Source of the DNA: Eubacteriales bacterium
Lineage (GTDB): Bacteria > Bacillota > Clostridia > Oscillospirales > CAG-272
Direction of reading: 5' to 3'
DNA length: 64,000 nucleotides
Assembly: GCA_045655185.1 (NCBI GenBank)
Contig: JAZOOS010000026.1
Coordinates: 9,505-73,504, forward strand
Under the pieces are notes generated by a model. The model searched no databases and had not been told where the DNA came from. It was given only the letters and a program-made list of their open reading frames with translations. Made by a program: the position numbers and the translations under genes. Positions 2,544 to 49,709 of the stretch are shown in pieces (position 1 is the stretch's first letter; each line of letters starts with the position of its first letter).

Positions 2544-2544
2544 G

Positions 2545-16831: not shown

Positions 16832-16907
<76 letters not shown>

Positions 16908-16910
16908 AAA

Positions 16911-16987: not shown

Positions 16988-17015
16988 GTTTCACCAATGG
17001 AGGGGACAAAAAGGT

Positions 17016-19337: not shown

Positions 19338-19506
19338 CCGAATGAAGTGTGCAGGAAAGTGTGGCAACACAGCCGAAGGAGTAACGCTCTCAGGTGTCCG
19401 CAAGGATAGAGACTGTATGCTGACGGATCTTTGGAGACGCCCACGTACGTGGGGGCCGAAGGGGCAAGCGCTGTGGCGCCAATCTCTCAGGCAAAAGGAC
19501 AAAGAG
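19338..19506 (+). promoter_or_regulatory. tandem glycine riboswitch
   Basis: Aptamer 2: GGAGACGCCC...GGGGGCCGAAGGGGCAAGCG...CTCTCAGGCAAAAGGACAAAG. Aptamer 1 (more degenerate): GCAGGAAAGTG...CAGCCGAAGGAGTAACGCTCTCAGGTGTCCGCAAGGATAGAG. Located upstream of an alanine/glycine symporter, a classical context. Confidence 0.8.
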
Positions 19507-19560
19507 CGAACCTTTTCGCATTTTTTGTTTTTTACGGGGCGTTTCGTACGCCCCTTTTTT
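19505..19560 (+). terminator. two consecutive leader terminators (expression platform)
   Basis: GCGAA-CCTT-TTCGC+ATTTTTTGTTTTTT, then GGGGCG-TTTCGTA-CGCCCC+TTTTTT. Confidence 0.6.
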
Positions 19561-19592
19561 GTTGTTTATTTTATGTTTCTTTGGAGGAAATT

Positions 19593-21137
19593 ATGGAACA
19601 GTTTATCAATGGCGTCACAAACGTCAACAACGCCGTCAACGGCGCGGTATGGGGTCTTCCCGGCCTCATCCTTCTCATCGGTACCGGCATTTTGCTGACC
19701 GTGCTCACCAAGGTCTTTCAGGTGCGGCACGTCGGGCATTGGTGGAAGCAAACCATCGCCAGTGTCTTTAAAAAGGACAGCAAAAGCACCAAGCAGACCG
19801 ACAAAAAGAGCATCTCGCAATTCCAAGCGCTTTGCGCCGCCCTTGCCGCCACGGTCGGCACGGGAAATATCGCGGGCGTTGCCGCCGCGATCGTAACGGG
19901 TGGCCCCGGCGCGGTTTTCTGGATGTGGTTCGCCGCCTTCTTCGGAATGATGACCAACTTCTCGGAAAACCTGCTCGGCATCTACTACCGCCGCCGCAAC
20001 AAGGACGGCGAGTGGTCGGGTGGCCCGATGTATTATCTGTGCGACGGGCTTGGCAAGCGCTACGGCAAGAAGTGGCTTTCGCCGACCTCGAAGGTCTTGG
20101 CGGTCCTCTTCTCTTGCTTTGCCATCCTTGCTTCCTTCGGTATCGGAAACATGGCGCAGATCAATAAGATCGTTCTTAACATGGACGCCGCCTTCTTCCA
20201 GAACGCCAGCCTCGGCGTGATCCCCGGCACCGATATCAATATCATCCACCTGCTGCTTGGCATTTTCCTGCTTATCATCGGCGCCCTCATTATCATCGGC
20301 GGGTTGAAGCGTATTGCCCGCTTTGCCGAGATCGTTGTTCCGATCATGGCTATCGTTTACGTCCTCGGCTCGCTCATCATCGTTTGCATCAACATCAGCC
20401 AGGTTGGCCCGATGTTCGTTTCGATCTTCAAGTTTGCCTTTACGCCTGCCGCCTTCCTTGGCGGTGGGATCGGCGTTCTCATCAAAAAGACGATGACGCA
20501 GGGCTTCAAGCGCGGCGTTTTCTCGAACGAGGCGGGTCTTGGCTCTTCGGTCATGGTTCACTCTTCCTCGAACGTCAAAGAGCCGGTCAAGCAGGGTATG
20601 TGGGGCATCTTTGAGGTCTTCTTCGATACCATGATCGTTTGCACCATGACGGCGGTCGTCGTTCTTTCGACCGGCTATATCGATCTTGCCACCGGTACGC
20701 CCGTGGCGGGCATCAACGGCGATACGCTGGTTTCGACCGCGTTTGGTAAATACTTCGGCGCCCCCGGCACCTGGTTCGTGGCGATCGCGATGCTCTTCTT
20801 CGCCTTTACCACGGTTCTCGGCTGGTCGCAATACGGCTCGAAGGCGGTCGAATACCTCTTCGGCACGAAGGGCGTGAAGGTCTATCGCTTCATCTTTGTC
20901 GCGATGATCGTTTCGGGTGCTATTATGGAGGGTGGCCTTGCCTGGGATCTTTCGGATACCTTCAACGGGCTGATGATGATCCCGAACCTTATCGGTGTTC
21001 TGGCGCTCTTCCCCTTGGTCGTTAAGATCACGAAGAACTACGTCGACCGTAAGATCTTTAAAAAGGATATCGCCCCGCTTCTTTCCTACGACCCCGAAAT
21101 TCAGGCGGAGATGGAAAGAACGCTTGACGAGGAATAA
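19593..21137 (+). CDS. agcS: alanine/glycine:cation (sodium) symporter, AGCS family
   Basis: ORF 19431..21137. Start MEQFINGVTNVNNAVNGAVWG after GGAGGAAA. FQALCAALAATVGTGNIAGVAAAI and SNEAGLGS motifs. Confidence 0.85.
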   Translation: MEQFINGVTNVNNAVNGAVWGLPGLILLIGTGILLTVLTKVFQVRHVGHWWKQTIASVFKKDSKSTKQTDKKSISQFQALCAALAATVGTGNIAGVAAAIVTGGPGAVFWMWFAAFFGMMTNFSENLLGIYYRRRNKDGEWSGGPMYYLCDGLGKRYGKKWLSPTSKVLAVLFSCFAILASFGIGNMAQINKIVLNMDAAFFQNASLGVIPGTDINIIHLLLGIFLLIIGALIIIGGLKRIARFAEIVVPIMAIVYVLGSLIIVCINISQVGPMFVSIFKFAFTPAAFLGGGIGVLIKKTMTQGFKRGVFSNEAGLGSSVMVHSSSNVKEPVKQGMWGIFEVFFDTMIVCTMTAVVVLSTGYIDLATGTPVAGINGDTLVSTAFGKYFGAPGTWFVAIAMLFFAFTTVLGWSQYGSKAVEYLFGTKGVKVYRFIFVAMIVSGAIMEGGLAWDLSDTFNGLMMIPNLIGVLALFPLVVKITKNYVDRKIFKKDIAPLLSYDPEIQAEMERTLDEE

Positions 21138-21194: not shown

Positions 21195-21400
21195 TACGGA
21201 CGGATCACCCCCGTGCAAGGGGAGGTGGCTTGCGAAGCAAGACGGAAGGGTTGCTAAAACAATCCCTCACCGCCTGCGGCGGAGCTCCCTTTACACAAGG
21301 GAGCCTTTCTTCCACCATGCCCGATCTTTTGCTATGGAAGGATAAAACCTTCGATTTTTGTAGAGTAGGGGCGGCCATTGGCCGTCCGCGCGAAACGAGC
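21195..21400. repeat. hairpin-rich repeat tract upstream of cassette 1
   Basis: GCTTGC-GAA-GCAAG, CCGCC-TGC-GGCGG, GCTCCCTT-TACAC-AAGGGAGC, CTTCCA...TGGAAG+GATAAAACC, TAGGGGCGGCCATTGGCCGTCC. Confidence 0.7.
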
Positions 21401-21456
21401 AAATCGCTATCCCCGTTTTCACCGAAATATGCGTTATAATAGGGGCGCAAACCGAA

Positions 21457-21485
21457 TTGACGGCGAGTGATTTTTGATGTATAAT
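21457..21485 (+). promoter_or_regulatory. promoter of toxin cassette 1
   Basis: TTGACG, 17 nt, TATAAT. The same element is present upstream of cassettes 2 and 3. Confidence 0.65.
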
Positions 21486-21498
21486 AAAGGAGAATACG

Positions 21499-22040
21499 AT
21501 GAGCTCTGTTACAGAAGCGAATCCTTACGTTTTGGGAAACAGCAAAACGTGGAAGAATTGGCAAGCCAACTATAAAGAGCCGAGAACCTGCCTGCCGTGC
21601 GAAGATAAGCATGGGAAGATCTATCCTTTTCTTCAAGTTTAAAAATCCCCGAGCATCTGTTTTGTCGATGCGAAATTGTTCCAATGCGAACAAAACAAGT
21701 GGGGACAGCCACCGATAAAGGCTTTGGCTGGGCCGATGCTTGGTTGATGTATCGGGGCAGGTTGCCGGATTGTTATATTACAAAGAGAGATGCGCTGAAA
21801 ATGGGATGGAAATCTAACAAACAAAACTTGGCAGATGTTTGTCCGGAAAAGCTAATAGGAAATGTACCATATCGTAACTACGAGGGAAAACTTCCTATTA
21901 AGGCTGATCGAAGCTGGTATGAGGCAGATTTTGATTATATTGGCAACGATAGAGGGGCAAACAGAATTTTATATTCGAACGATGGCTTAATCTTTGTCAG
22001 CTACGATCATGCAAAAACTTTTTATGAATTAGTGAAATAA
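21499..22040 (+). pseudogene. mini-MuF - barnase-like RNase toxin, frameshifted (cassette 1)
   Basis: MSSVTEANPYVLGNSKTWKNWQANYKEPRTCLPCEDKHGKIYPF then TAA at 21640-21642. Relative to copies 2 and 3, one C is missing in TATCC(C)TTTT at about 21626. The shifted frame continues ...SSSLKIPEHLFCRCEIVPMRTKQVGT... through the full barnase-like domain (track ORF 21684..22040). Confidence 0.8.
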
Positions 22041-22052
22041 AGAGGTGACATT

Positions 22053-22373
22053 GTGCTGAACACATATAAATACAAAGTCGATTTTTCGGGCGTGGAGGAT
22101 TATTGGGATATCCACGGCATACTTAAAGAAAGCTTGAATTTTCCCGATTATTACGGCGGTCATTTGGACGCGCTTTTTGATTGCCTTACCGATATGCTTG
22201 GCGCCATTTCGATAATTGAAATACACGGAATAGAAAAACTTGAAAAGTATGACGGGTATGACAAAAGGGTGATTGATGTTTTTCGTGACGCAAAGCATGT
22301 TTATGATGAATTTTCCGACCGCTTCTTCGTTACGATCGTTCATGAGGACGGCACGCGCGAAGAAATCGTATAG
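22053..22373 (+). CDS. barstar-like immunity protein (cassette 1)
   Basis: 106 aa, GTG start. ILKESLNFPDYYGGHLDALFDCLTDML matches the barstar [23 protein letters not shown] motif. Confidence 0.8.
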   Translation: MLNTYKYKVDFSGVEDYWDIHGILKESLNFPDYYGGHLDALFDCLTDMLGAISIIEIHGIEKLEKYDGYDKRVIDVFRDAKHVYDEFSDRFFVTIVHEDGTREEIV

Positions 22374-22397
22374 CGGAAAGGGATAGAAAAAACGAGG

Positions 22398-22428
22398 AAA
22401 AGAGCAGAACCGCGGTTCTGCTCTTTTT
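22398..22428. terminator. terminator palindrome family member (bidirectional, shared with XRE gene)
   Basis: AAAAGAGCAGAACC-GCGG-TTCTGCTCTTTTT. Confidence 0.75.
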
Positions 22429-22642
22429 ATTTATACCGTTGCTTCTCGTCGGTCTCGCCGAGAAGGTAGTCAACACTCGTACCGTAAAAGCGCGCAAGAC
22501 GAATGAGAATGGCGGTTGGAATATCATTTTCCCCGGTTTCGTATTTCGAATAGCCGGTTTGCGACATGCCCAGCATTTTCGCGATCTCGGTTTGATTCAT
22601 ATCAAGGTCCTCTCGCAGGTTCCGTATCCTTGGATATTTCAT
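22427..22642 (-). CDS. XRE family HTH transcriptional regulator
   Basis: 71 aa. IRNLREDLDMNQTEIAKMLGMSQTGYSKYETGENDIPTAILIRLARFYGTSVDYLLG. Confidence 0.85.
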   Translation of the reverse strand: MKYPRIRNLREDLDMNQTEIAKMLGMSQTGYSKYETGENDIPTAILIRLARFYGTSVDYLLGETDEKQRYK

Positions 22643-22682
22643 GCTTCACACTCCTGTAACAAGCTTATACTCATTATAGGAT

Positions 22683-22727
22683 AATCTGTTTCAGGCTATT
22701 GACTTTTAACCTTAAACAGGTTATAAT
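22683..22727 (+). promoter_or_regulatory. divergent promoter with two related operator-like sites
   Basis: TTGACT (22699-22704), 17 nt, TATAAT (22722-22727). AATCTGTTTCAGGCT (22683-22697) and AACCTTAAACAGGTT (22708-22722) are 25 bp apart; the second lies in the spacer. Confidence 0.55.
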
Positions 22728-22783
22728 TTTTCTTGAATATTTCTGCTTGCTTTCCTTCTTGCGGCTTTATGATGAGGTGAAAA

Positions 22784-23131
22784 ATGGTAGGCTTTATTGC
22801 TTTTCTTTTTTTGGTAATGGGCGGTGCTGTGCTGACGGTTCGATATATTGTTGCGAAAAAATTTGAGGAGATAGCCAAGCAAAAGGGCTACGGGAAAGAA
22901 GCTCACGCTTTTGCGATGTGCTTCTGGCTTGGCGTTTTTGGGGCTTTGTACGTTATTGCGTTACCCGATCGTATGTTTTTACCCGACGAGGCGAAGAAAA
23001 TACAGCAAAAAGCGGCTTCCCGTTCCAAAAAACCTCGGCGGCATCCGTGCCCTTGCTGCCGATTGCCGATCCGATACGGAGCAGAAGCATGCCCCTTTTG
23101 CCATCAGCTTATTGAGTGGCCCTCGGAATAA
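22784..23131 (+). CDS. small membrane protein with C-terminal zinc ribbon
   Basis: 115 aa, 2 TM, C-terminal CPCCRLPIRYGAEACPFCHQLIEWPSE. Paralog at 31412..31822. Confidence 0.6.
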   Translation: MVGFIAFLFLVMGGAVLTVRYIVAKKFEEIAKQKGYGKEAHAFAMCFWLGVFGALYVIALPDRMFLPDEAKKIQQKAASRSKKPRRHPCPCCRLPIRYGAEACPFCHQLIEWPSE

Positions 23132-23140
23132 AAGAAAAGG

Positions 23141-23170
23141 AAAAGAGCAGAACCGCGGTTCTGCTCTTTT
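23141..23170. terminator. terminator palindrome family member
   Basis: AAAAGAGCAGAACC-GCGG-TTCTGCTCTTTT. Confidence 0.7.
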
Positions 23171-23216
23171 CCTTTTGCATACAATAAAAAAAGGCAAAAA
23201 TTTTTTTGTAAACCCC

Positions 23217-23245
23217 TTGACAGTCACGTGACCGTGTGATATAAT
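23217..23245 (+). promoter_or_regulatory. promoter of the DUF1836-NfeD-flotillin operon with spacer palindrome
   Basis: TTGACA, 17 nt, TATAAT. The spacer begins with the perfect palindrome GTCACGTGAC. Confidence 0.6.
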
Positions 23246-23294
23246 CAAAGCACATAACGAAGAGATCAAAGAACGACGAAAAGGAGGAAGGGCG

Positions 23295-23852
23295 ATGAAG
23301 CTTGGGGCCTTACCGGGGACCACGATTGAAGTATCCCACCTTGAAAAAGACAGCGCGCGCCACGTATTCTCGCATATTTTTTCCGCCGGAGGGGTCGTGC
23401 TTTCGCAGCTTTCGCATATGACGGGGCTTGAACCGCATACGATCCAAAACTGGGTCAAGCGCGGCTTTCTTTCCCCACCGCAGCACCGCCAGTATACCGA
23501 ACGGCAGTTCGCGCGGGTGGTGATCATCAATCTCTTGCGGCAAAGCATGCAGATCGATAAGATCGTAGAGCTTTTGTCCTCGATCAACGGGAATCTTTCG
23601 GATGAGAGAGATGACCGTATTGATGACCCCACGCTTTACAATATGTTCGCTAATGTGCTTTGCGCCATCGGCGAGGGGTATCCGTCGCAAGAGGCGGTGA
23701 AGGCCGCCGCGCAAGGTGAGCTTGAAGGCTTTTCCGAACGCTACGCGGGGGATAAAAAACGGATCGAAAGGGTGCTTTCGGTTATGGTCTACGCGCATCT
23801 ATGCTCGGCCGCCAAGGCGCGGATCGATCACTTGCTTTGCACACTTGATTAA
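23295..23852 (+). CDS. DUF1836-like HTH protein
   Basis: 185 aa. LSQLSHMTGLEPHTIQNWVKRGFLSPPQHRQYTERQFARVVIINLLRQSMQIDKI resembles the DUF1836 signature (from memory). Confidence 0.55.
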   Translation: MKLGALPGTTIEVSHLEKDSARHVFSHIFSAGGVVLSQLSHMTGLEPHTIQNWVKRGFLSPPQHRQYTERQFARVVIINLLRQSMQIDKIVELLSSINGNLSDERDDRIDDPTLYNMFANVLCAIGEGYPSQEAVKAAAQGELEGFSERYAGDKKRIERVLSVMVYAHLCSAAKARIDHLLCTLD

Positions 23853-23866
23853 AGGAGGAGTTTGTT

Positions 23867-24484
23867 ATGTTAGGTCAATGGTTTGAGGCGCTCGGCCTTT
23901 TCGGGCAGATCTGCCTTTGCTTCGCCGTTCCTTCCTCGATCGTTTTACTCGTACAGATCGTGCTTTCGCTCCTTGGCCTTTCGGACGGCGGTATGGACCT
24001 TGCCGACGGGGCAGACGGGGAGCTACCCGATCTTCCCGACGATCTTGAGGATTTTTCGCCCGGCGACGTCGATCTTGGCGGCTTTCACATCCTTACGCTT
24101 CGTACGGTGATGGCCTTCTTCGTGTCCTTCGGCTGGATGGGCGTTTCGCTTGCGAATAACGCGCTTGCCCCGTGGGCGCAAATGCTGATCTCGATCGGCT
24201 TTGGGCTTGCTATGATGGCGCTGGTCGCCTTCTTGATGTGGGGGGTCTACCGCCTGCAAGCAGACGGCACCGCCCAAAACGTTAACGCCCTCGGCTCCTC
24301 GGGCACGGTGTATCTCACCGTCCCCGCCGAGCGGGTCGGCCACGGTAAGGTCAACGTGATGCTCCAAGGCGCGTACGTTGAGCGTGATGCCGTGACCGAT
24401 GAAAAGGCGCCCCTTTCCTACGGAACCGAGATCGTGGTCGTCGGTGTTTCGGGGGAAAACACCTTAGTCGTCGCCAAAAAATAA
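23867..24484 (+). CDS. NfeD-like membrane protein (flotillin partner)
   Basis: 205 aa, N-terminal TM helices, C-terminal OB-like GHGKVNVMLQGAYVERDAVTDEKAPLSYGTEIVVVGVSGENTLVV. Directly upstream of the flotillin gene. Confidence 0.7.
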   Translation: MLGQWFEALGLFGQICLCFAVPSSIVLLVQIVLSLLGLSDGGMDLADGADGELPDLPDDLEDFSPGDVDLGGFHILTLRTVMAFFVSFGWMGVSLANNALAPWAQMLISIGFGLAMMALVAFLMWGVYRLQADGTAQNVNALGSSGTVYLTVPAERVGHGKVNVMLQGAYVERDAVTDEKAPLSYGTEIVVVGVSGENTLVVAKK

Positions 24485-24519
24485 AAGATACAATTTTTAC
24501 AATATAAGGAGGAAAATTC

Positions 24520-25917
24520 ATGGGACCCATTTTAACCGCACTCATCGTCATCGTCGTTATCGCCTTGGCCATTCTTCTCTGGGCTTGCACGCGCTATCGC
24601 AAATGCCCCTCGGATAAGATCATGGTCATTTACGGTAAGGTCGGCAAAAACAAGGACGGCTCTGCCCGCAGTGCGACCTGTATGCACGGTGGCGCCCGCT
24701 TTATCGTACCCGTCATTCAATCGGTCGAATTCCTTGACCTGACCCCCATTTCGATCGGGGTCGACCTTCGCAACGCCCTTTCTCGCCAGAACATCCGTAT
24801 CGACGTTCCGTCGAGCTTCACCGTCGGTATCTCGACCGAGCCCGGCATCATGCAAAACGCCGCCGAGCGGCTTTTGGGGCTCCAGCTCTCCGAGATCCAG
24901 GATCTTGCCAAGGATATCATCTTCGGTCAGCTGCGTCTGGTTATCGCCACGATGGATATTGAAGAGATCAATACCGACCGCGATAAGTTCCTTGACGAGG
25001 TCAGCCGCAACGTAGAAACCGAGCTGAAAAAGATCGGGCTCCGTCTTATCAACGTAAACGTCACCGATATCTCGGATGAGTCGGGCTACATCACCGCTCT
25101 CGGTCGAGAGGCCGCCGCCAAGGCGATCAACGACGCGAAGAAGTCGGTTGCCGAAAAGAACCGCGACGGTGCGATCGGCGAAGCCAACGCCCAGAAGGAT
25201 GAGCGTATCAACGTTGCCCAAGCCAACTCGGTCGCCGTAAAGGGTGAAAACGATGCCAAGGGTGAGATCGCCCTGTCGAACGCCCAGTTGCGTGAAAAGG
25301 AGGCCGAGGCGCAAAGAATCGCCATCGCCGCCGAAAAGATCCAAGAGGCAAAGGCGTTAGAGGAAGCCTACGCCGCCGAAAAGGCCGCCGAAGAAGCCCG
25401 TAAGGCCAGAGAAAGAGCTTCGCTTGAAGCCGACGTTATCGTTAAGGCCGAGATCGAAAAGCGCCGCTTAGAGCTTGCCGCCGAGGCCGAGGCCGAGCAG
25501 ATCCGCCGCCGTGCCAAGGGTGAAGCCGACGCGATCTTCGCCAAGATGCAGGCCGAGGCAAACGGTATGAAGGAAATGCTGACCAAGCAGGCGGACGGCT
25601 TTGAAGAGCTGGTTCGCGCCGCGGGCGGCGGTGCCGACGAGGCGCTTCGCTTGATGATCGCCGATAAGCTCGAAGAGCTGATGAAGATCCAGGTAGAAGC
25701 GATCTCCAACATCAAGATCGACAAGGTCACCGTCTGGGATAACGGCGCGAATAGCGACGGCAAGACCGCGACCGCCGGATTTCTTTCGGGTATGATGAAG
25801 AGCGTGCCGCCGCTGGACGAGGTCTTCTCGATGGCGGGTATGTCGCTTCCCTCGATCCTCGGCTCCAAGAAGGAAGAGACCGCCGCGGTTGAGAAAAAAG
25901 ACGAAGCCGCCGAATAA
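24520..25917 (+). CDS. flotillin (SPFH/band-7) family protein
   Basis: 465 aa. N-terminal hairpin TM, an SPFH domain, then a long Ala/Glu-rich coiled coil (EAEAQRIAIAAEKIQEAKALEEAYAAEKAAEEARKARE...). Confidence 0.85.
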   Translation: MGPILTALIVIVVIALAILLWACTRYRKCPSDKIMVIYGKVGKNKDGSARSATCMHGGARFIVPVIQSVEFLDLTPISIGVDLRNALSRQNIRIDVPSSFTVGISTEPGIMQNAAERLLGLQLSEIQDLAKDIIFGQLRLVIATMDIEEINTDRDKFLDEVSRNVETELKKIGLRLINVNVTDISDESGYITALGREAAAKAINDAKKSVAEKNRDGAIGEANAQKDERINVAQANSVAVKGENDAKGEIALSNAQLREKEAEAQRIAIAAEKIQEAKALEEAYAAEKAAEEARKARERASLEADVIVKAEIEKRRLELAAEAEAEQIRRRAKGEADAIFAKMQAEANGMKEMLTKQADGFEELVRAAGGGADEALRLMIADKLEELMKIQVEAISNIKIDKVTVWDNGANSDGKTATAGFLSGMMKSVPPLDEVFSMAGMSLPSILGSKKEETAAVEKKDEAAE

Positions 25918-25957
25918 GCCGCCTTTCTTCAAAAAAGAAAAGAAAACTTTGCAAAAT

Positions 25958-25989
25958 AAAAGAGCAGAGCCGAGGCTCTGCTCTTTTTA
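25958..25989. terminator. terminator palindrome family member
   Basis: AAAAGAGCAGAGCC-GA-GGCTCTGCTCTTTTT. Confidence 0.7.
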
Positions 25990-26072
25990 CATCTACCCGC
26001 CGCCCGTTTGATGCAAGGCGATGCCGTGATGATATACCAAGGCAAGGCCTTGGATAAAAACCGTAGGTGTAG

Positions 26073-26294
26073 GGTTAGTGCAGAAAAAACGGCAAAGGCG
26101 TTTTTTCAATCGGTGTCGGCCAAAGCGCGAGCGGGCAGAGCCGAGCAGGCGCAGGCGATAGAACGCGACACACGACGCCGACAGGTTAGTGCAGAAAAAA
26201 CGGCAAAGGCGTTTTTTCAATCGGTGTCGGCCAAAGCGCGAGCGGGCAGAGCCGAGCAGGCGCAGGCGATAGAACGCGACACACGACGCCGACA
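26073..26294. repeat. perfect 111-bp tandem duplication
   Basis: GGTTAGTGCAGAAAAAACGGCAAAGGCGTTTTTTCAATCGGTGTCGGCC...GACGCCGACA occurs twice head-to-tail (26073-26183, 26184-26294), identical by eye. Confidence 0.9.
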
Positions 26295-26391
26295 GGTCGA
26301 GCATCGCTCGTCCGGTTTTTCCTCGTAGGCGCGTAGGGGCGACCATTGGTCGTCCGCTGAAATATGCGTTATAATAGGGGCGTAAACCGAT

Positions 26392-26420
26392 TTGACGGCG
26401 AGCGATTTTTGATGTATAAT
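26392..26420 (+). promoter_or_regulatory. promoter of toxin cassette 2
   Basis: TTGACG (26392-26397), 17 nt, TATAAT (26415-26420). Confidence 0.65.
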
Positions 26421-26433
26421 AAAGGAGAATACG

Positions 26434-26976
26434 ATGAGCTCTGTTACAGAAGCGAACCCTTACGTTTTGGGAAACAGCAAAACGTGGAAGAATTGGCAAG
26501 CAAAATATAAAGAGCCGAGAACCTGCCTGCCGTGCGAAGAAAAGCATGGGAAAATTTATCCCTTCACTTCAAGTTTTAAAATTCCCGAGCATTTGTTTTG
26601 CCGATGCGAAATTGTCCCGATGCGAACAAAGCAGGTGGGCACAGTAACCGACAAGGGCTTCGACGGCGCCGATGCTTGGTTGATGTATCGGGGTAGGTTG
26701 CCGGATTATTACGTTACGAAGGAAGAAGCAATGGCTTGTGGGTGGGATTACAGAAAGAAAAATCTTGCAGAAAAATGCCCCTGCAAAATGATAGGTGGAA
26801 ACATTTATCGGAATGATGACTTAAAACTTCCCACTTCTCCTGATAGGGAGTGGCGAGAAGCCGATTTCGATTTCGTATCTGGAAAAAGAAATCGAAAAAG
26901 AATTTTATATTCAAACGACGGGTTGATTTTTGTCAGCTATGATCACGCGCAAACCTTTTATGAACTAGTGAAATGA
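26434..26976 (+). CDS. mini-MuF - barnase-like RNase toxin (cassette 2)
   Basis: 180 aa. RTCLPCEEKHGKIYPF...IPEHLFCRCEIVP (MuF/SPP1 gp7 C-terminal core), then YVTKEEAMACGW...LKLP...WREADFDF...RKRILYSNDGLIFVSYDHAQTFYELVK (barnase-like, Glu/His pair present). Confidence 0.8.
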   Translation: MSSVTEANPYVLGNSKTWKNWQAKYKEPRTCLPCEEKHGKIYPFTSSFKIPEHLFCRCEIVPMRTKQVGTVTDKGFDGADAWLMYRGRLPDYYVTKEEAMACGWDYRKKNLAEKCPCKMIGGNIYRNDDLKLPTSPDREWREADFDFVSGKRNRKRILYSNDGLIFVSYDHAQTFYELVK

Positions 26977-26986
26977 GGTAAATCCA

Positions 26987-27313
26987 ATGCTTGAAACTTA
27001 CAGATACAGAGTTGATTTATCCAAAGCCAAAAACCATTGGGAGATACACGATATCTTGAAAGAAGCCTTGGATTTTCCCGATTATTACGCAGGACATCCG
27101 TATGCTCTGTGGGATTGCTTAACCGATATGCTGGGCGGGATCAATTACATAGAGATCTCGGGAATGGAAAACGTGAAAATGGTTTCCGCCGAAGATTATA
27201 AAGAGATTCTTTCCTTGCTAAAAGAAACCAAACATGCTTACGACGATAAATTTTCCGACCGCTTCTTCGTTACCATCGTTCACGAGGACGGCACGCGCGA
27301 AGAGATCCTGTGA
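26987..27313 (+). CDS. barstar-like immunity protein (cassette 2)
   Basis: 108 aa. ILKEALDFPDYYAGHPYALWDCLTDML; ends ...VHEDGTREEIL, like the other two copies. Confidence 0.8.
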   Translation: MLETYRYRVDLSKAKNHWEIHDILKEALDFPDYYAGHPYALWDCLTDMLGGINYIEISGMENVKMVSAEDYKEILSLLKETKHAYDDKFSDRFFVTIVHEDGTREEIL

Positions 27314-27338
27314 TAAAAAACGATCGCGCCAACAAAAC

Positions 27339-27373
27339 AAAAAAGAGCAGAACCGCGGTTCTGCTCTTTTTTT
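27339..27373. terminator. terminator palindrome family member
   Basis: AAAAAAGAGCAGAACC-GCGG-TTCTGCTCTTTTTTT. Confidence 0.7.
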
Positions 27374-27492
27374 GTGCCGCCGCTTCGGGAGAGCCCCTTT
27401 TTTATCGGTCGTTTTTCCTTGCGCGTATCTTGCAAAACGGCTCTTGGCGTGCTATACTGATACCGTAATTGTTTTTTTAAGGAGATGTTACT

Positions 27493-29187
27493 ATGAAACG
27501 CATTCTGCCCTTTTTGATCGTGTTGCTTGCCTTTGCTTGCGTTCTTTGCGCGTGTGATGACCCCGGTGACGGCGGCCCCGAGGCAGGCACCAAGCCGATG
27601 GGCAACAGCTGTACGCACAACTGGGAAATGTCGATGGATCCCCAAGAAGACAGCGAGGGCTCGATCAACTGTACCCTTTGCCACTATGGCGAAAGCTTCC
27701 CCGCGCTTTCCGATAGCCGCCTTACGGCAAGCGAGGATGGCGACGCAACGATTTACAGCTTCACGACCATGGACGGCTCTGTCGCTACCTACCGCTTTGA
27801 GCATTTTGTTTTCGAAGCGTGCGAGGGCGGGTATAACCTGATCGAATATCGCGGCAACAAGGCTGCCGTCGTGATCCCCTCGACCTACAACGGCCAGACG
27901 GTCGTTTCGGTCGGCCGTAACGATAGCTTCCCGATCTTTGATAGTGCTTCGATCACCTCGGTCACCTTCCCCGATTCGATCAGCGAGATCGAGGGCTATC
28001 TTTTCAGTACGAACTGCACGGCGCTGACGGGGCTGTATCTGCCCGCTACGGGGGATGATCTGACGATCAGAGGCCTCTTTATGGGGCAAAATATTCCGGT
28101 TAAGACGGTAACGGTTACCTCGGGCACGACGCTTGGCTTCTACTTCTTCGCCGAGTGTCAAAGCCTTGAAACCGTGTATCTTCCCTCGACCGTCCGCTCG
28201 ATCGGCTACGACGCCTTCGGCCAGTGCGATTCGCTTGACGTCGTCTATTTCGATTGCACGCTGGCCGAATACTGCGAGATCCTTTTCGACAACAATTGGT
28301 ATTCCGCCTCGCATCCGATGTATAACGCCGACACCTTTTACTTCAAGGATGAAAACGGCGAATACGTTACGGTCGGCGACGTTCTCGTGATTCCCGAGGG
28401 GGTCACGTCGATCAGCGCCAAGGCCTTTATGCATATGCCGATGCACACCCTCGTCCTGCCCGATTCGGTCACCGTGATCGGCGAAGAGGCCTTCCAGTAC
28501 TGCGAGAATCTTACGGCCGTGGTGCTGGGCACGGGTCTTCAATCGGTCGGCAAGAACGCGTTTTATCAGTCCTCCTCGCTTGAAACCGTGTATTATAAGG
28601 GCGATTACTCGGGCTGGCGTTACGTCCAAATCGATAACTCGGATAGCCCCAGCAACTATTACCTCCTCCACGCCGAAACCTATTACTACCAAGAAGAGGG
28701 CGACGTCTTTGATTACGCCAGGGGTGAGGTGCGCTGGCACTTTGACGAGAACGGCCTGCCCGTCCTCTGGAGCTTTGATCTGACCAACACGGTCGACGGC
28801 AAGACCTTCGTCCACGCCGGCACCGAGGTCGAGATCTCGGATGAATATTGGTACATGTTAGAGGCCGCCGAGGCGCAGGGCATGCTGGAATACGTCTTAG
28901 AGGGCGAGCAGCTCTTCTTCTATCAAAACAGCGAAACGAAAGAAGAGTTTGAAGAAAAGGTCCAAAACGCTATGAACGAGGATTACACCGCCCTTTCGAT
29001 CTCGTTTGCCGAGGGGCGCTTCACCGGTATCGACACCTACCCCGCCTCGTATATCGAGCTGGAGGGCGATAAGATCTACCGCGTTTCCAACGAAACCTTG
29101 GTCTTTACCATCGAAAACGGCAACCTCGTTTGGGATAATTCCAATGAGTATATTACCGTGATCACCACGCTTACCCTTTCGGAATAA
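27493..29187 (+). CDS. BspA-type leucine-rich repeat (LRR_5) lipoprotein
   Basis: 564 aa. Signal peptide plus lipobox (LLAFACVLCAC|DDP). Repeated ...IPSTV.SIG..AF..C.SL..V.. units (VYLPSTVRSIGYDAFGQCDSLDVVYF, LVLPDSVTVIGEEAFQYCENLTAVVLG). Confidence 0.75.
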   Translation: MKRILPFLIVLLAFACVLCACDDPGDGGPEAGTKPMGNSCTHNWEMSMDPQEDSEGSINCTLCHYGESFPALSDSRLTASEDGDATIYSFTTMDGSVATYRFEHFVFEACEGGYNLIEYRGNKAAVVIPSTYNGQTVVSVGRNDSFPIFDSASITSVTFPDSISEIEGYLFSTNCTALTGLYLPATGDDLTIRGLFMGQNIPVKTVTVTSGTTLGFYFFAECQSLETVYLPSTVRSIGYDAFGQCDSLDVVYFDCTLAEYCEILFDNNWYSASHPMYNADTFYFKDENGEYVTVGDVLVIPEGVTSISAKAFMHMPMHTLVLPDSVTVIGEEAFQYCENLTAVVLGTGLQSVGKNAFYQSSSLETVYYKGDYSGWRYVQIDNSDSPSNYYLLHAETYYYQEEGDVFDYARGEVRWHFDENGLPVLWSFDLTNTVDGKTFVHAGTEVEISDEYWYMLEAAEAQGMLEYVLEGEQLFFYQNSETKEEFEEKVQNAMNEDYTALSISFAEGRFTGIDTYPASYIELEGDKIYRVSNETLVFTIENGNLVWDNSNEYITVITTLTLSE

Positions 29188-29202
29188 AAAACGCCAATCG
29201 TA

Positions 29203-29235
29203 AAAAAGAGCAGAACCGAGGTTCTGCTCTTTTTA
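29203..29235. terminator. terminator palindrome family member
   Basis: AAAAAAGAGCAGAACC-GA-GGTTCTGCTCTTTTT. Confidence 0.7.
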
Positions 29236-29389
29236 CATCTATCCGCCGCGCGTTTTTTCTGCGGACGGCCGATGGCCGTTTCGTTGCGTTTTTCACCGTA
29301 GGGGCGAGCATCGCTCGTCCGCGCGAAACGGGCAAAGCGTTGTCCTCATTTGCGCCGAAATATGCGTTATAATAGGGGCGCAAGCCGAT

Positions 29390-29418
29390 TTGACGGCGAT
29401 CGATTTTTGATGTATAAT
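29390..29418 (+). promoter_or_regulatory. promoter of toxin cassette 3
   Basis: TTGACG (29390-29395), 17 nt, TATAAT (29413-29418). Confidence 0.65.
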
Positions 29419-29431
29419 AAAGGAGAATACG

Positions 29432-29974
29432 ATGAGCTCTGTTACAGAAGCGGATCCTTATGTTTTTGGAAACAGCAAAACGTGGAAGAATTGGCAAGCA
29501 AAATATAAAGAGCCGAGAACCTGCAAGCCGTGCGAGGATAAACATGGGAAGATCTATCCCTTTTCTTCAAGTTTAAAAATTCCCGAGCATTTGTTTTGCC
29601 GATGCGAAATTGTCCCGATGCGAACAAAGCAGGTGGGCACAGTAACCGACAAGGGCTTCGACGGCGCCGATGCTTGGTTGATGTATCGGGGCCGGTTGCC
29701 GGATTATTATGTTACGAAAGAAGAAGCGAAGGGGAAAGGGTTTCGCCGCAAAAAGCAAAACTTGGCAGATGTTCTTCCCGGTCAAATGATAGGGGGGGAT
29801 GAGTTTAGTAACGATCAAAGAAAATTGCCGGACGCACCAAACAGAAGATGGTACGAAGCCGATCTTGATTATACTTACGGAAAAAGAAATTTGAAAAGGA
29901 TTTTATATTCAAGTGACGGTTTGATTTTTGTAACGAAAGATCATTATCAAACATTTTACGAAGTAATAAAGTGA
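29432..29974 (+). CDS. mini-MuF - barnase-like RNase toxin (cassette 3)
   Basis: 180 aa. Closest of the three to Bacillus barnase: YVTKEEAKGKGF..KQNLADVLPGQMIGGDEFSNDQRKLPDAPNRRWYEADLDYTYGKRNLKRILYSSDGLIFVTKDHYQTFYEVIK. Confidence 0.85.
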   Translation: MSSVTEADPYVFGNSKTWKNWQAKYKEPRTCKPCEDKHGKIYPFSSSLKIPEHLFCRCEIVPMRTKQVGTVTDKGFDGADAWLMYRGRLPDYYVTKEEAKGKGFRRKKQNLADVLPGQMIGGDEFSNDQRKLPDAPNRRWYEADLDYTYGKRNLKRILYSSDGLIFVTKDHYQTFYEVIK

Positions 29975-29983
29975 GGGAAAGAG

Positions 29984-30301
29984 ATGGATAAATATGTTGT
30001 GGATTTTTCCGAAGTAACACATTACATCGAGATTCATGAAGCATTAAAGAAAGATTTGGATTTTCCCGATTATTACGGCGGGAACACCGATGCTTTATGG
30101 GATTGCTTGACCGATATGCTGGGCGATTCTTCGCATATTGAGCTTGTTGGCTTTGAAAAGGTAAAAGAACGCTATAAAAATGAATGGGAAGGCATCCTTC
30201 GAATTATGAAAAAAGCAAAGCATGCCTACGGCGGTAAATATGCAAACACATTTGTTGTCGTGTTAATACATGAGGACGGCACACGGGAAGAGATCCTATA
30301 A
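29984..30301 (+). CDS. barstar-like immunity protein (cassette 3)
   Basis: 105 aa. ALKKDLDFPDYYGGNTDALWDCLTDML. Confidence 0.85.
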   Translation: MDKYVVDFSEVTHYIEIHEALKKDLDFPDYYGGNTDALWDCLTDMLGDSSHIELVGFEKVKERYKNEWEGILRIMKKAKHAYGGKYANTFVVVLIHEDGTREEIL

Positions 30302-30326
30302 TAAAAATTAACCGTGCCAACAAAAT

Positions 30327-30357
30327 AAAAAGAGCAGAAATTTCTTCTGCTCTTTTT
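30327..30357. terminator. terminator palindrome family member (bidirectional)
   Basis: AAAAAGAGCAGAA-ATTTC-TTCTGCTCTTTTT. Confidence 0.7.
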
Positions 30358-31926: not shown

Positions 31927-33285
31927 ATGAGCCGGGTCACCGATATGACGAGCGGGAATATAGCCGCGCGACTGTTAAGCTTTTCTTTTCCCCTGATCCT
32001 TTCGAATATCGGGCAGCAGCTCTATATGATCGCCGATGCTTCGATCGTAGGCTTGGGGCTGGGGGTACGGGCGCTTGCCGCCGTTGGCGCGACCGATTGG
32101 TGCTACTGGCTCTTTTTATGGACGGTCATCGGTACGACGGGGGCCTTCGCCACCTTTATCTCGCGCCATTTCGGGAATCACGATCTCGAGAAAATGAATC
32201 GCGCGATCGGTGCCTCGATCCGCCTTTGCGCCGTGATCGCCGCAATCGTTACCGCCGCGGGGCTTTTGTCGGCTTGGCCGCTGCTTCGCCTTCTTAACAC
32301 CCCCTCGGATATCATTGGGCAATCCGCCACCTATCTTCTTACGATGCTTGCGGGGCTGCCGATCGTTTTCGCTTATAATATGGCCGCCTCGATCCTACGC
32401 GCGCTGGGAGACGGGAAATCCCCGCTTTTTGCGATGCTGATCGCCGCCGTCCTTAACGTGGGGCTTGACCTTGTTTTCGTTTTAGTGCTCCCCTTCGGTG
32501 TGTTCGGCGCGGCGGCGGCCTCGCTGATCTCTCAGCTTTTTGCCTTCCTTTATTGCTTCTTGCGGATACGGAAAACCGAGGGGATCGACCTCTCGCGCGG
32601 GCGAGGGCGTCCGCTTCCCGGTATGCAAAAGGAGATGCTGGCGCTTGCCCTGCCGATCGCTTTGCAATATATCGTTTTGTCGCTTGGCGGGATCGTTCTT
32701 CAATCGACGGTTAACGTCCAAGGGAGTGTGTTCGTTGCGGGCTATACCGCCACCTCAAAGCTTTATGGGCTCTTGGAAGCGGTTTCGATCGCCCTCGGGA
32801 TGGCCTTTGCCACCTTTACGGCGCAAAATTACGGCGCGGGGAATTTCGGGCGGATCAAAAAAGGGATCTACGTCAGCAGCCTCTTGTGCCTGATCTTCGC
32901 GCTTCTTTTCGGCGCGCTCGTCCTTTTCCTTGGTGAAGGGATGCTTTCGCTCTTCCTTGACAAGGGGGACCCCGCCACCCCGCTTGCCCTGCCGATCGCG
33001 CTTCGCTTCTTGCGTATTCTCGGCGCGTTCCTCTTTGTTTTGTATTTGATCCATATCTTCCGCAACGTCTTGCAATCCATGGGCATCTCGCGCTGGTCGC
33101 TGCTTTCGGGCTTTTCGGAGTGCGCCGTGCGGATCCTGATGGCGAAGGTCTTTATCCTTCCTTTTTCGACCGACGCCCTCTTCTTTGCCGAGCCCGCCGC
33201 CTGGCTTGGCGCCCTGCTTACCGTCTGTATCCCCTATTTCTTCTATCAAGCAAAATGGGGGAAAGACAAAAGAACGGACGGATAG
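31927..33285 (+). CDS. MATE family efflux transporter
   Basis: ORF 31810..33285. Start MSRVTDMTSGNIAARLLSFSFPLILSNIGQQLYMIADASIVG. 12 TM segments. Confidence 0.8.
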   Translation: MSRVTDMTSGNIAARLLSFSFPLILSNIGQQLYMIADASIVGLGLGVRALAAVGATDWCYWLFLWTVIGTTGAFATFISRHFGNHDLEKMNRAIGASIRLCAVIAAIVTAAGLLSAWPLLRLLNTPSDIIGQSATYLLTMLAGLPIVFAYNMAASILRALGDGKSPLFAMLIAAVLNVGLDLVFVLVLPFGVFGAAAASLISQLFAFLYCFLRIRKTEGIDLSRGRGRPLPGMQKEMLALALPIALQYIVLSLGGIVLQSTVNVQGSVFVAGYTATSKLYGLLEAVSIALGMAFATFTAQNYGAGNFGRIKKGIYVSSLLCLIFALLFGALVLFLGEGMLSLFLDKGDPATPLALPIALRFLRILGAFLFVLYLIHIFRNVLQSMGISRWSLLSGFSECAVRILMAKVFILPFSTDALFFAEPAAWLGALLTVCIPYFFYQAKWGKDKRTDG

Positions 33286-33316
33286 TATCCTTCTGTATAA
33301 AACAAAAAGAGCAGAA

Positions 33317-33708
33317 TTAGCGTGTTATCCTTAACGGAGAACACGCAGCGATATAAATCTCTTTTGGGATTTGCGATATGTTTTGAACACCTCGCCGTAG
33401 GCGAGATATTCAAAACTCGATATTTGCTACGCAAACGATGTGCCCTGCGGGGCGTGAGGGGATTTATATCATATCGCACCGAGCATAGCACGGTATATCG
33501 CAACCGAGTGAAACGAGGTTATATCGCATTCGCACGGCGAATATATCGTCTAACGTAAAAAGAGATAACATTTCGGCTACAAACCGATCTGTTATCTCTT
33601 TCTGTCGTTATAAGGGTTTGGGCTTAGTCCAATTAGCGTTTGTCCAGACAAATGCGATGCTTGCACTTTTGTCAAAGTGTAAATTCTCCGCTAAGAACAT
33701 CACCCATT
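33317..33708. repeat. comb array (word GCGATAT / ATATCGC) plus extra hairpins, inserted in the loop of a terminator palindrome
   Basis: The left arm AAAAAGAGCAGAA (33304-33316) and right arm TTCTGCTCTTTT (33709-33722) are separated by about 390 nt. The insert begins TAGCGTGTTATCC...GGAGAACACGC and contains GCGATAT x3 followed by ATATCGCA x3. Confidence 0.8.
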
Positions 33709-33744
33709 TTCTGCTCTTTTTCTTATTTCTGTAAACAAAACTTT

Positions 33745-34794
33745 TTATTTAAAAAGCTCGGCAAGCGTATCGAGCTCCTGTTCCTCGAAGGAGCCGGGGG
33801 TGACCTTCGGGCGGGCGGTCTTGATCATCTCGCGGGCGATGGCTTCATCGATCGGGGCGGGGGTGGCGCCGAGGATGCGGTGGGCGTTGCCGCCGTAGAT
33901 CAGCTCCAGCGCTTCGGGGGGCGCGTCGATGCCACAATAGATCTTACCGACGTAATCGTTCTTCGCGTCAAGCCCCGTCTCGAAGAAGTTATGCATCATA
34001 TTGGGGCGGTGATGATAGGTCTTGCAGTTGTAGGTATCGGTTCCGAAGAGGAAGCGGTCGGCGTGCGAAAGGATGAAGGGGCGCCAGAAATCCAGCTCCT
34101 TGGTCATCGTCAGGATTTCCTGCGGCCCGGGGGTGACGTCAAGATAGGTGTTCTTGTAGGTGAAGAATTTTTCAGCACGCTCGCGGTGGTAGCTGAAAAA
34201 GCCCCAGTGCGCGATGATCAGCGTAAGATCTGGATGCTTGTCAAGGAGATGGAAGATCGAATTCTGTAAGTCGTCGAAGGTCGGCACGCTTTCGTCGCAG
34301 AACCACCCATGCTCTAAGGCGTATTTATCGATACGGGTAAGATCCCAGAATTCTTCGGGATCGCCGACGTGCATCACGATCGGGAAATTCGTTTCCTCAC
34401 AGTAGCTGTAAAGCGGGTCGAATACGGGATCGTCGATCTCTTTGCCGATCATGCGGTAGACCGAGGGCTTTCCCTCTAACATTTTCAGCCCGTCAAAGCC
34501 CGCCGCCCGATAAAGCTTGGCCTGGCGAACGAAATCGGCGGCCTGCTCTTCGTCCGAAAGCGTCTTATCATGCTCGGGGCCGGCGAGGGCGAAGGCGCGG
34601 GGGGCAAGCAGCTTCTTGTGCCCCAAGGCCTGCGCGTTTTGAATGGGGTCCATTGAAAGTCCGTGGGTCGGCAGGGAAAGCAGTGCAAGCTCCCGTACAT
34701 TGCATTCCTCGCACACCGCGTTAAGAATGCGTACCGATTCGTGAAGAGGGACCTCACAGGTAAAATGAAAATGGCTGTCAAAGACCGGTCTCAT
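33745..34794 (-). CDS. amidohydrolase-2 (PF04909-like) family protein
   Basis: ORF 33745..34881. Start MRPVFDSHFHFTCEV... Also HVGDPEEF and FLFGTDTY. Confidence 0.75.
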   Translation of the reverse strand: MRPVFDSHFHFTCEVPLHESVRILNAVCEECNVRELALLSLPTHGLSMDPIQNAQALGHKKLLAPRAFALAGPEHDKTLSDEEQAADFVRQAKLYRAAGFDGLKMLEGKPSVYRMIGKEIDDPVFDPLYSYCEETNFPIVMHVGDPEEFWDLTRIDKYALEHGWFCDESVPTFDDLQNSIFHLLDKHPDLTLIIAHWGFFSYHRERAEKFFTYKNTYLDVTPGPQEILTMTKELDFWRPFILSHADRFLFGTDTYNCKTYHHRPNMMHNFFETGLDAKNDYVGKIYCGIDAPPEALELIYGGNAHRILGATPAPIDEAIAREMIKTARPKVTPGSFEEQELDTLAELFK

Positions 34795-49458: not shown

Positions 49459-49473
49459 AAAGAGCAGAACCGT

Positions 49474-49675: not shown

Positions 49676-49709
49676 AAAAGAGCAGAACCGTGTGTTCTGC
49701 TCTTTTTTT
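49674..49709. terminator. terminator palindrome family member
   Basis: AAAAAAGAGCAGAAC-CGTGT-GTTCTGCTCTTTTTTT. Confidence 0.7.

Follow-up and report, generated by a model that had tools for sequence, protein, structure and literature searches.

E33, a 388-nt non-coding element in the window analysed here (the whole 64,000-nt stretch of contig JAZOOS010000026.1, from an uncultured gut Eubacteriales), is very probably a copy of a high-copy, modular mobile DNA element of gut Clostridia that integrated at the central TT of a terminator palindrome and is mobilised in trans. The interrupted palindrome lies in the spacer (33286-33744) between the convergent MATE efflux and Amidohydro_2 genes. Copies of the family are polymorphic, i.e. 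present or absent at the same site within species, and several of them occupy the tips of hairpins with unrelated stems. Being small and non-coding, with inverted-repeat ends and many polymorphic copies, the E33 family appears to behave as a MITE (miniature inverted-repeat transposable element).

An inserted element separates the arms of a terminator palindrome

The stem of the target palindrome is GC-rich, with an A-tract on its upstream side and a T-tract on its downstream side; the palindrome lies directly after the convergent gene ends and is predicted to be an intrinsic bidirectional terminator. Its two arms, AAAAAGAGCAGAA and TTCTGCTCTTTTT, are complementary at 13/13 positions and now stand 392 nt apart, a distance made up of the 388-nt element and of TT twice. 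An earlier sequence-only reading of the window had described a palindrome opened by ~390 nt; the insert (388 nt plus one TT) and the left arm at 33304-33316 were found as described, and the right arm, which had been given as 33709-33722, is present but ends at 33721. The same palindrome recurs in the window. The 11-mer AAAGAGCAGAA, with at most one mismatch, matched 26 times on the two strands (expected, 1.5; maximum in 100 shuffles, 5), and nine intact palindromes with loops of 5-7 nt, each directly 3′ of a gene end (at 22399, 23142, 25959, 27342, 29205, 30329, 31836, 49677 and 50363), account for most of the matches with their paired arms. Because three pairs of them sit in paralogous duplicated cassettes of a local triplication, the number of independent copies is lower than nine. 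This triplicated small gene cassette spans 21400-30350 (repeat families D1-D4 and D9; 70-94% identity), each copy ends in the same terminator palindrome, and a ribonuclease-domain gene (26434-26976) is included in it.

At orthologous loci of relatives, the palindrome is uninterrupted. The window without 33319-33708 (390 nt) equals the reverse complement of L221:4790-4845, with 100% identity over the palindrome and ~50 nt of flank, and in window orientation the L221 site reads AAAAAGAGCAGAATTTTCTGCTCTTTTTCTTATTTCTGTAAACAAAACTTT. Since deleting 390 nt reproduces L221 exactly, the original target was arm(13)-TT-arm(13), a 28-nt palindrome that received a 388-nt insert and now has TT on both sides of it. 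The nearest public metagenome-assembled genomes (MAGs) encode MATE proteins 94% (L001) and 90% identical to that of the window, and an exact-protein look-up found no identical copy of the window MATE protein on record. The orthologous site of L001 carries the uninterrupted palindrome AAAAAAGAGCAGGAATTTCTGCTCTTTTT followed by the same flank as in the window, and that of L220 carries an intact hairpin whose stem changes are compensatory. Metagenome contigs near the window locus were only ~90% alike and broke at the element. Thus, the insertion event proposed from the sequence alone is borne out by three relatives. That the two half-palindromes might be unrelated, or each be part of another complete hairpin, as the sequence-only reading had cautioned, is refuted: the fully complementary arms form a stem with one another that closes the entire fold, the same palindrome is intact nine times in the window, L221 and L001 have exactly this site in its intact form, and neither arm has a different pairing partner.

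In L220 (5050-7384) and L221 (4793-7156), genes for an alpha-L-fucosidase and an AraC-type regulator lie between the amidohydrolase and MATE genes, both being absent from the window and from L001, and L221 has the identical 28-nt palindrome at both convergent junctions around this gene pair. The arrangement suggests, as the most economical course, that the pair was lost in the lineage of the window and L001 by recombination between the identical palindromes, and that the insertion came later, in the window lineage. Resident identical palindromes appear also to serve as recombination substrates.

E33 consists of inverted-repeat ends, hairpins and a two-fold symmetric comb

The extreme ends of E33 are 23-nt imperfect terminal inverted repeats (17/23 matches, binomial P = 1.2e-6). 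Aligning the copies, which the sequence-only reading had proposed as a way to map the ends, placed the starts of other copies at the equivalents of 33316/17 and their stops at those of 33705-08, coinciding with the ends of the insert. Between the ends follow a 5′ hairpin, a comb of short words with a small hairpin after each, an internal terminator-like hairpin (hairpin X) and a 3′ module of three hairpins (Table 1). The base AAAGAG/CTCTTT of hairpin X is conserved, and its apical stem varies among copies with compensatory changes in 7 predicted pairs. All sequence elements named in the earlier description were recovered, i.e. the GCGATAT words followed by a second word set, the 5′ hairpin of the type seen at 49472 (there starting at 49473), and the hairpins at the end, with the likeness of one of them to the hairpin at 14303.

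Only mechanical open reading frames (ORFs) of 78 and 85 amino acids overlap E33. Among the ~45 window ORFs searched with Pfam there was no transposase, HUH enzyme or IS110-type protein, but only a large serine recombinase and a ParB-like protein, both encoded in the low-GC island at the window's end. The proposal that the insert is a non-autonomous element with no transposase inside agrees with a non-coding E33 and a multi-copy family. Both strands of E33 fold with z of about -11, and the minimum-energy fold is closed by the 13-bp terminator arms. Over 13 copies, no strand asymmetry was seen in folding energy or G.U content, which fits a palindromic design at the DNA level and speaks against a structure selected only in the sense RNA. 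A scan of the region for promoter and terminator consensus sequences was uninformative.

The family is modular, polymorphic and abundant in gut metagenomes

Scanning of metagenome contigs for the 5′ hairpin yielded 24 loci, with a comb following in all. Nine independent full-length copies could be aligned over the last ~160 nt (hairpin X and 3′ module), and these end in CACCCA(TT). The family order is the 5′ hairpin (TT)A-GCGTGTTATCC-TTAAC-GGAGAACACGC, the comb, the internal hairpin ACAGAAAAAGAG-stem-loop-stem-CTCTTTCTG, and the 3′ module with hairpins TGGGCTTAGCCCA and GCATTTGAC..GTCAAATGC and the end ...TTCTCCGCTAAGAACATCACCCA, all within 23-nt imperfect terminal inverted repeats; the element starts with AGCGTGTTATCC... 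and finishes with ...GAACATCACCCA. The comb comprises 3-4 units (a 7-nt word plus a small GC hairpin), a centre, and 3-5 units of the reverse-complement word plus hairpin, the left words always standing ahead of the right ones. Words are uniform within a copy and specific to subfamilies (at least seven classes: GTGAAGT, TGAATTG, TCGATAT, GCGATAT, TGAAATC, GTGATAT and GTTATGA), the two halves of a copy change their word together, and in the minimum-energy folds left words pair with right words in a nested ladder. Because both the word and the number of teeth vary among copies, the comb encodes no conserved protein. Modules are mosaic among copies, the same hairpin X occurring with different word classes.

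In metagenome contigs, the flanking genes had depths of 4-18 and the interval 33271-33758 had summed depths of 300-4000, from hundreds of contig pieces; another word class reached a summed depth of up to 5800, and the best-conserved parts in the contig overlay were the two element ends. The family is very abundant in cattle-gut metagenomes (hundreds of contig pieces each) and in other gut metagenomes. Family pieces were also found in metatranscriptome contigs, with the flanking genes at zero depth, these contigs having no strand information and possibly including DNA. In viral contigs, scans for the word patterns gave chance matches only, with no blastn similarity to any element, the 5′ hairpin was absent, and the 3′ end pattern detected one partial copy (L219); plasmid and phage collections held no similarity to the element. 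The family breaks assemblies at gene ends, and recognising it would improve the assembly and annotation of MAGs.

Two further members, E49 and E14, both short forms without the 3′ module, reside in the window. At the E49 site (49457-49707), the left arm and half of the loop (AAAAAGAGCAGAACCG) stand as a direct repeat, followed after the element by the complete palindrome. The site is empty, with the palindrome intact, in L222 (2470-2510) and L223 (2185-2215), and is filled in the same manner in L224, L225 and L226; the L226 element (990-1260) differs from E49 by ~1 nt, and the Dus protein of L226 is only 85% identical to that of the window. A mirror image of E49 was observed at L219:7560-7720 (minus strand; IMG/VR contig 3300029305_005036), where the complete hairpin AACCCCGACAGA-TTTTGAA-TCTGTCGGGGTT precedes ~60 nt that finish with the family's 3′ terminus ...CACCCATT, after which come a second right arm TCTGTCGGGG and a T-tract. 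A duplicated arm seems to accompany partial elements.

Other rearrangements were noted along the way. At L202:5551-5577 and L213:2611-2637, the 5′ hairpin has the opposite orientation to the comb (GCGTGTTCTCC..GGATAACACGC on the element strand), its loop and asymmetric mismatch being turned round with it, as if the segment had flipped. An extra 39-nt module, AACCTGCTACGCAGAACCTTGTTATTCGCTCTGCTCATA, occurs in the 3′ module of L206 (6200-6250), L211 (1780-1819) and an X13 contig, at the equivalent of window ~33610. L222 (GCA_052840725) has a different structured insertion of ~375 nt just after the Dus terminator (2506-2880), which is absent from the window and L226; it has the internal inverted repeat GGAGGCTCCCTTGTGCAAAGGGAGC ... 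CTCCCTTTACACAAGGGAGGCT and a 23-24-nt match at window 21283-21307.

The comb is related to the Gut-1 motif

Gut-1 (RF01706) was listed as a likely non-coding RNA on grounds of covariation, from human-gut sequences only, with nothing on function, context or mobility (PMC2864571, Weinberg et al. 2010), and in the literature searched it was named only in this original description. Its consensus contains three small hairpins with GUGAAAU words between them, corresponding to the TGAAAT word class. At the Rfam gathering score, which for Gut-1 is 50 bits, the window yielded tRNAs and a glycine riboswitch only, and a permissive scan of the region gave weak matches only, E33 scoring 15.3 bits on the plus strand (33346-33446) and 16.9 bits on the minus strand (33461-33551). 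Three sister copies exceed the gathering score with their left comb half (L208, 53.4 bits; L207, 53.1 bits; L201, 50.8 bits), and all three have the 5′ hairpin, internal hairpin and 3′ module of E33. The E33 comb likewise shows the Gut-1 layout of at least three small hairpins and a repeated 7-nt word, with GCGATAT in place of GUGAAAU, and this difference in the word accounts for its low score. By the Rfam score, E33 lies outside Gut-1, but judged from the shared modules it is homologous to elements whose combs qualify.

One Gut-1 match falls in each half of the E33 comb, one per strand, which shows the comb to be an inverted duplication of a Gut-1-like array. Gut-1 seed sequences also have a 5′ hairpin ahead of the comb, and one of them, the human-gut seed BAAZ01000095, which has another 5′ hairpin, is preceded by GGGGCUGCCGGAGAGGC and followed by GCCUCUCC-UGAC-GGCAGCCCC, the layout of a split hairpin. 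What was described as a candidate RNA is thus reinterpreted, on these sequence comparisons, as one arm of the two-fold symmetric core of a larger mobile DNA element. By this, Gut-1, an orphan of Rfam since 2010, gains a genomic identity, and its purpose becomes a testable question about transposition.

Copies tend to enter the tips of terminator-like hairpins

A second filled/empty pair was obtained at L200, whose filled allele is present in the X28 and X32 metagenomes. In contigs of X37 and X40, position 1816 of L200 is followed by 2172, 355 nt being absent and 3 letters at the join being assignable to either side, and the empty site is the hairpin AAAAAGCAGAGGCGCTT-TAAT-AAGCACCTCTGCTTTTT, the stem of which is unrelated to that in the window. 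Where it could be deduced (E33 and L200), the insertion point lies no more than 1.5 nt from the dyad centre. Flank pairing in the copies of the window, L197 and L200 reaches -17 to -24 kcal/mol, better than in all 72 mismatched flank pairs (mean -8.3, standard deviation 3.1), and the flanks of L204 match at 11/14 positions. On their left side, nearly all copies have an A-tract and a GC-rich segment, and on their right a T-tract; most lie between convergent genes, at many unrelated gene ends. Hence the preference for the hairpin loop that had been read from E33 extends to L200 with its different stem, to L197 and L204, and to the human-gut Gut-1 seed, with about half of the evaluable copies lacking convincing arms. 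A co-orientation rule with the upstream gene was considered and dropped, as most copies lie between convergent genes and two are antisense in tandem contexts. Further empty alleles were not found: the L197 flanks were absent from the runs tried, and the L208 locus occurred in one run only.

At the junctions, the dinucleotide before the element equals that after it in eight of the nine full-length copies (TT in seven, TA in L201), and the filled/empty comparisons gave junction overlaps of 2 letters (E33/L221) and 3 letters (L200). Insertion at the tips of unrelated terminator stems, with precise filled and empty alleles, offers a clean natural setting in which to study how structure directs the choice of target and how much loop expansion terminators tolerate.

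Proposed mobilisation in trans and alternative explanations

For E33 as a mobile element acted on in trans, the enzyme could perhaps be a dimeric transposase of the DDE kind working on double-stranded DNA, which we favour tentatively and only weakly over an HUH enzyme. Such a dimer would bind the inverted-repeat ends and, as for MITEs such as Correia, attack a palindrome with an AT core and a GC stem at its dyad centre, with a stagger of 2 nt. This route fits the inverted repeats, the 2-nt repeat (the copy with TA on both sides included) and a target centred on the dyad. Once inserted, the element ends would pair with each other and the interior would fold into a closed branched rod, so that the terminator arms could still meet in the transcript. 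Insertion at the tip is thereby predicted to be nearly neutral, with termination largely kept, and copies may have accumulated at hairpin tips for this reason.

Several points weigh against this account. The flanks do not pair significantly in six of nine full-length copies, and about half of the evaluable copies lack convincing arms; since many flanks do not pair, hairpin targeting would be a preference, or would have eroded with age. The dinucleotides of L207 differ between its two sides, and the left-flank dinucleotide is TT in only ~16/22 copies, GT, AA, CT and GA occurring as well. The 2-nt repeat, being nearly always TT, could reflect a conserved target motif together with a similar right end, as with HUH enzymes, instead of a true duplication. 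Nor would simple cut-and-paste lead one to expect the duplicated or orphan arm beside the short forms E49, L210 and L218 and the fragment L219. No autonomous partner or candidate enzyme was found in the window, at the 24 metagenome loci or in the viral, plasmid and phage collections, the role of the comb in a DDE mechanism lacks explanation, and retained termination is a prediction from folding alone.

Single-strand transposition of the HUH/Y1 type, an enzyme class that the sequence-only reading had put forward, in which an IS200/IS605-type TnpA or a RAYT would recognise folded end hairpins on one strand, excise single-stranded DNA and insert it 3′ of a TT in the loop of an extruded or lagging-strand hairpin without true duplication, is in our judgement unlikely, although it suits much of what was observed. 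A hairpin is single-stranded only at the target, and target stems differ; TT on most left flanks and ...ATT at most right ends agree with a cleavage motif at each of the two sites; a (G/T)TAG tag (GTAG-CGTG...CACG-CTAC in E49, TTAG in E33) marks the 5′ hairpin, which is REP-like (repetitive extragenic palindromic); a mid-stem mismatch or bulge recurs in three of four hairpin types; many copies carry, 13 nt before the end, the 3′-module hairpin CTTAGCGG...CCGCTAAG; and folding is very good for both strands. However, a 23-nt terminal inverted repeat (P about 1e-6) is foreign to IS200/IS605 elements and, with the 2-nt flanking repeat, weighs mildly against an HUH enzyme; E33 has hairpins at or near both ends, but its extreme ends are inverted repeats. 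The 5′ hairpin begins only 1 nt inside the element, too close for the guide and cleavage-site geometry known for IS608. The left-flank dinucleotide is not strict, TA on both sides of L201 is more simply a duplication, no Y1 or RAYT gene was among the ~45 window ORFs scanned, and an enzyme needing only a single-stranded TT would not by itself explain placement at hairpin tips. GTAG-tagged REPs are usually associated with RAYT transposases, and GTAG-tagged REP-like repeats of the window (GTAGGGGCGACC..GGTCGTCC, family D13) would suggest a RAYT in the genome. GTAG-tagged REPs are described as a superfamily (PMC3733652). Palindromes of this REP-like kind, GTAGGGGCGACC-ATCG-GTCGTCC, were observed at 5416-5445, 21365-21394, 26333-26362 and 29298-29327, a hint of a Y1 enzyme elsewhere in the genome. 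Spread with no enzyme at all, by template switching during replication or gene conversion between terminator hairpins, helped by the shared AAAAAGAG...CTCTTT base and by fork stalling, is very unlikely. It would read E49, with its duplicated left arm and part of the loop, as two switches (left arm plus CCG(T), followed by the 5′ hairpin with the comb, after which copying would resume at AAAAAGAG in the complete palindrome of the site), and L219, with only the element 3′ end and a duplicated right arm, as the mirror case; the mosaic modules and the two-gene deletion that identical palindromes appear to have mediated in the window/L001 lineage also accord with it. Yet full-length copies keep sharp ends in hairpins dissimilar to each other and to the element, a 2-nt junction repeat is too little for homology-driven copying, and the copy number is very high.

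An immobile functional RNA, i.e. a structured RNA gene or 3′-untranslated-region domain (the Gut-1 RNA) with its own terminator and with the flanking arms as part of the RNA, is highly improbable as the explanation. Covariation led to the proposal of Gut-1 as a non-coding RNA (PMC2864571), compensatory changes are seen in the small hairpins and in hairpin X, a strong predicted terminator stands at the end of short forms, and family pieces appear in metatranscriptome contigs in which the flanking genes have zero depth. But those contigs may include DNA and lack strand information, folding and G.U pairs show no strand asymmetry, Gut-1 matches both strands of a single element, and precise presence or absence at two loci, the hundreds of copies and their location at many unrelated gene ends speak against it. 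An RNA function could coexist with mobility but cannot replace it in explaining this locus.

Two more specific mobilisers were considered and dropped. The large serine recombinase encoded at 59727-61421 would fit by its 2-nt crossover and dyad sites, but the target arms are wholly different between copies and one copy has TA, not TT. For TIGR arrays or an IS110 bridge/seek RNA within the element, no internal segment matches the flanks, and the targets are too diverse. As an extension of the trans-mobilised reading, E33 might represent a new class of structure-guided element, whose enzyme reads extruded terminator hairpins by shape, not sequence, and integrates at the tip, with the Gut-1 comb as an essential self-pairing part of the transposition intermediate and neither a passenger nor an ordinary RNA gene; this we hold to be quite doubtful. 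If true, such an element would colonise the one intergenic structure whose function its own folding can restore.

Comparison with known repeats and insertion sequences

Bacterial MITEs such as Correia have terminal inverted repeats of ~25 nt and a 2-nt flanking repeat (TA in Correia), BOX elements are modular with a variable number of internal units, and in the class comprising Correia, BOX, RUP and ERIC the mobilising enzyme is unknown or acts in trans. Like the E33 family, Correia/CREE of Neisseria, BOX and RUP of Streptococcus pneumoniae, and ERIC are small, non-coding, high-copy and intergenic, are co-transcribed and form long stem-loops. Unlike them, the present family targets terminator hairpin tips, not simple TA, has comb words that are uniform per copy, subfamily-specific and reverse-complemented in the second half, and shares no sequence similarity with any of them. 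Its layout is closest to the Correia and BOX elements, and its target resembles that of insertion sequences entering REP loops. Among the latter, IS1397 and ISKpn1 (IS3 family) insert into extragenic palindromes, IS1397 into the loop. Members of the IS110 family, e.g. ISPpu9/ISPpu10, are reported to insert in REP sequences (PMC12288879, PMC1525189, bioRxiv 10.64898/2026.03.19.712850). Both groups share with the E33 family the insertion in repeated extragenic palindromes or stem-loops at gene ends, but they are autonomous and each is bound to a particular REP sequence (IS110 via a guide RNA), whereas the E33 family is non-autonomous and its target stems are unrelated.

REPINs mobilised by RAYT and the IS200/IS605-derived PATEs are likewise hairpin-rich non-coding repeats mobilised in trans, the GTAG/TTAG-tagged 5′ hairpin of the E33 family being REP-like and a true duplication possibly lacking. 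The family differs from them in the terminal inverted repeat at the very ends, in size, in the comb and in a hairpin-tip target instead of a fixed tetranucleotide, and the window has no Y1 gene. Class C group II introns are also selfish and use intrinsic terminators as safe landing sites, but their insertion site lies just past the terminator stem-loop, and they are far larger elements, namely ribozymes that may or may not carry a reverse transcriptase; Rfam searches of the window and region found no resemblance to group II intron domains. What sets the E33 family apart from the known kinds is the combination of non-autonomy, targets with unrelated stems and a concerted two-fold comb.

Table 1. 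Features of the E33 locus and related features of the window
Feature	Position	Strand	Evidence or remark
MATE efflux gene	31927-33285	+	PF01554, E = 3.5e-42; its predicted terminator is interrupted
Left arm AAAAAGAGCAGAA (A-tract and stem) of the interrupted bidirectional terminator palindrome	33304-33316	+	identical in 9 intact window copies and L221
TT, left copy of the central dinucleotide	33317-33318	+	empty L221 site is arm-TT-arm (13+2+13)
E33, inserted 388-nt non-coding element AGCGTG...CACCCA	33319-33706	+	exact indel against L221; ends match other copies; z about -11 on both strands
5′ terminal inverted repeat AGCGTGTTATCCTTAACGGAGAA, overlapping the 5′ hairpin	33319-33341	+	17/23 against the reverse complement of 33684-33706
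5′ hairpin GCGTGTTATCC-TTAAC-GGAGAACACGC, conserved internal A.G mismatch, family signature	33320-33346	+	24 metagenome loci (exact-pattern scan), comb following
Comb, Gut-1-like	33348-33549	+	word positions; weak Gut-1 matches on both strands
Left comb words GCGATAT/TCGATAT(/CGATGT)	33348, 33373, 33417 (33436)	+	small hairpin after each
Right comb words ATATCGC/ATATCGT	33471, 33495, 33521, 33543	+	small hairpin after each
Hairpin X, internal and terminator-like, AAAAAGAGATAACA...TGTTATCTCTTT = AAAAAGAG-ATAACATTTCGG-loop-CCGATCTGTTAT-CTCTTTCTG	33557-33604	+	alignment of copies
3′ module, three hairpins	33605-33683	+	alignment A1 of 9 full-length copies
3′ module hairpin TGGGCTTAGTCCA	33619-33631	+	
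3′ module hairpin GCGTTTGTC-CA-GACAAATGC, conserved family module	33636-33655	+	counterpart of GCATTTGT-GGAC-ACAAATGC at 14303-14322
3′ module hairpin TTGCACTTT-TGTC-AAAGTGTAA	33661-33682	+	
3′ terminal inverted repeat TTCTCCGCTAAGAACATCACCCA	33684-33706	+	alignment A1; repeat comparison
TT, right copy	33707-33708	+	L221 comparison; junction dinucleotides of copies
Right arm TTCTGCTCTTTTT (palindrome arm and T-tract)	33709-33721	+	sequence; palindrome copies; L221
Amidohydro_2 gene, convergent	33745-34794	-	PF04909; orthologues P0001 and P0002; same bidirectional terminator as MATE
E49, second family member, short form (5′ hairpin and GTTATGA/TCATAAC comb, without 3′ module)	49473-49676	+	between the duplicated left arm 49457-49472 and the intact palindrome 49675-49707
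E14, third family member, short form without 3′ module	14296-14515	-	different 5′ hairpin 14488-14514; GTTATGA/TCATAAC comb; GCATTTGT hairpin 14303-14322; own terminator 14243-14287
Large serine recombinase gene (Resolvase/Recombinase/Zn_ribbon_recom/DUF4368)	59727-61421	-	Pfam
ParB-N protein gene	61777-62664	-	Pfam

Other features of the window

The segment 59727-64000, with a low GC content (44-48%) and the serine recombinase and ParB-N genes, probably marks the border of an integrated mobile element. At 26073-26294 there is a tandem duplication of 111 nt, which is perfect. Five tRNA genes are clustered on the minus strand at 16628-17092, and the glycine riboswitch (19421-19512) is located upstream of a sodium:alanine symporter gene (19431-21137).

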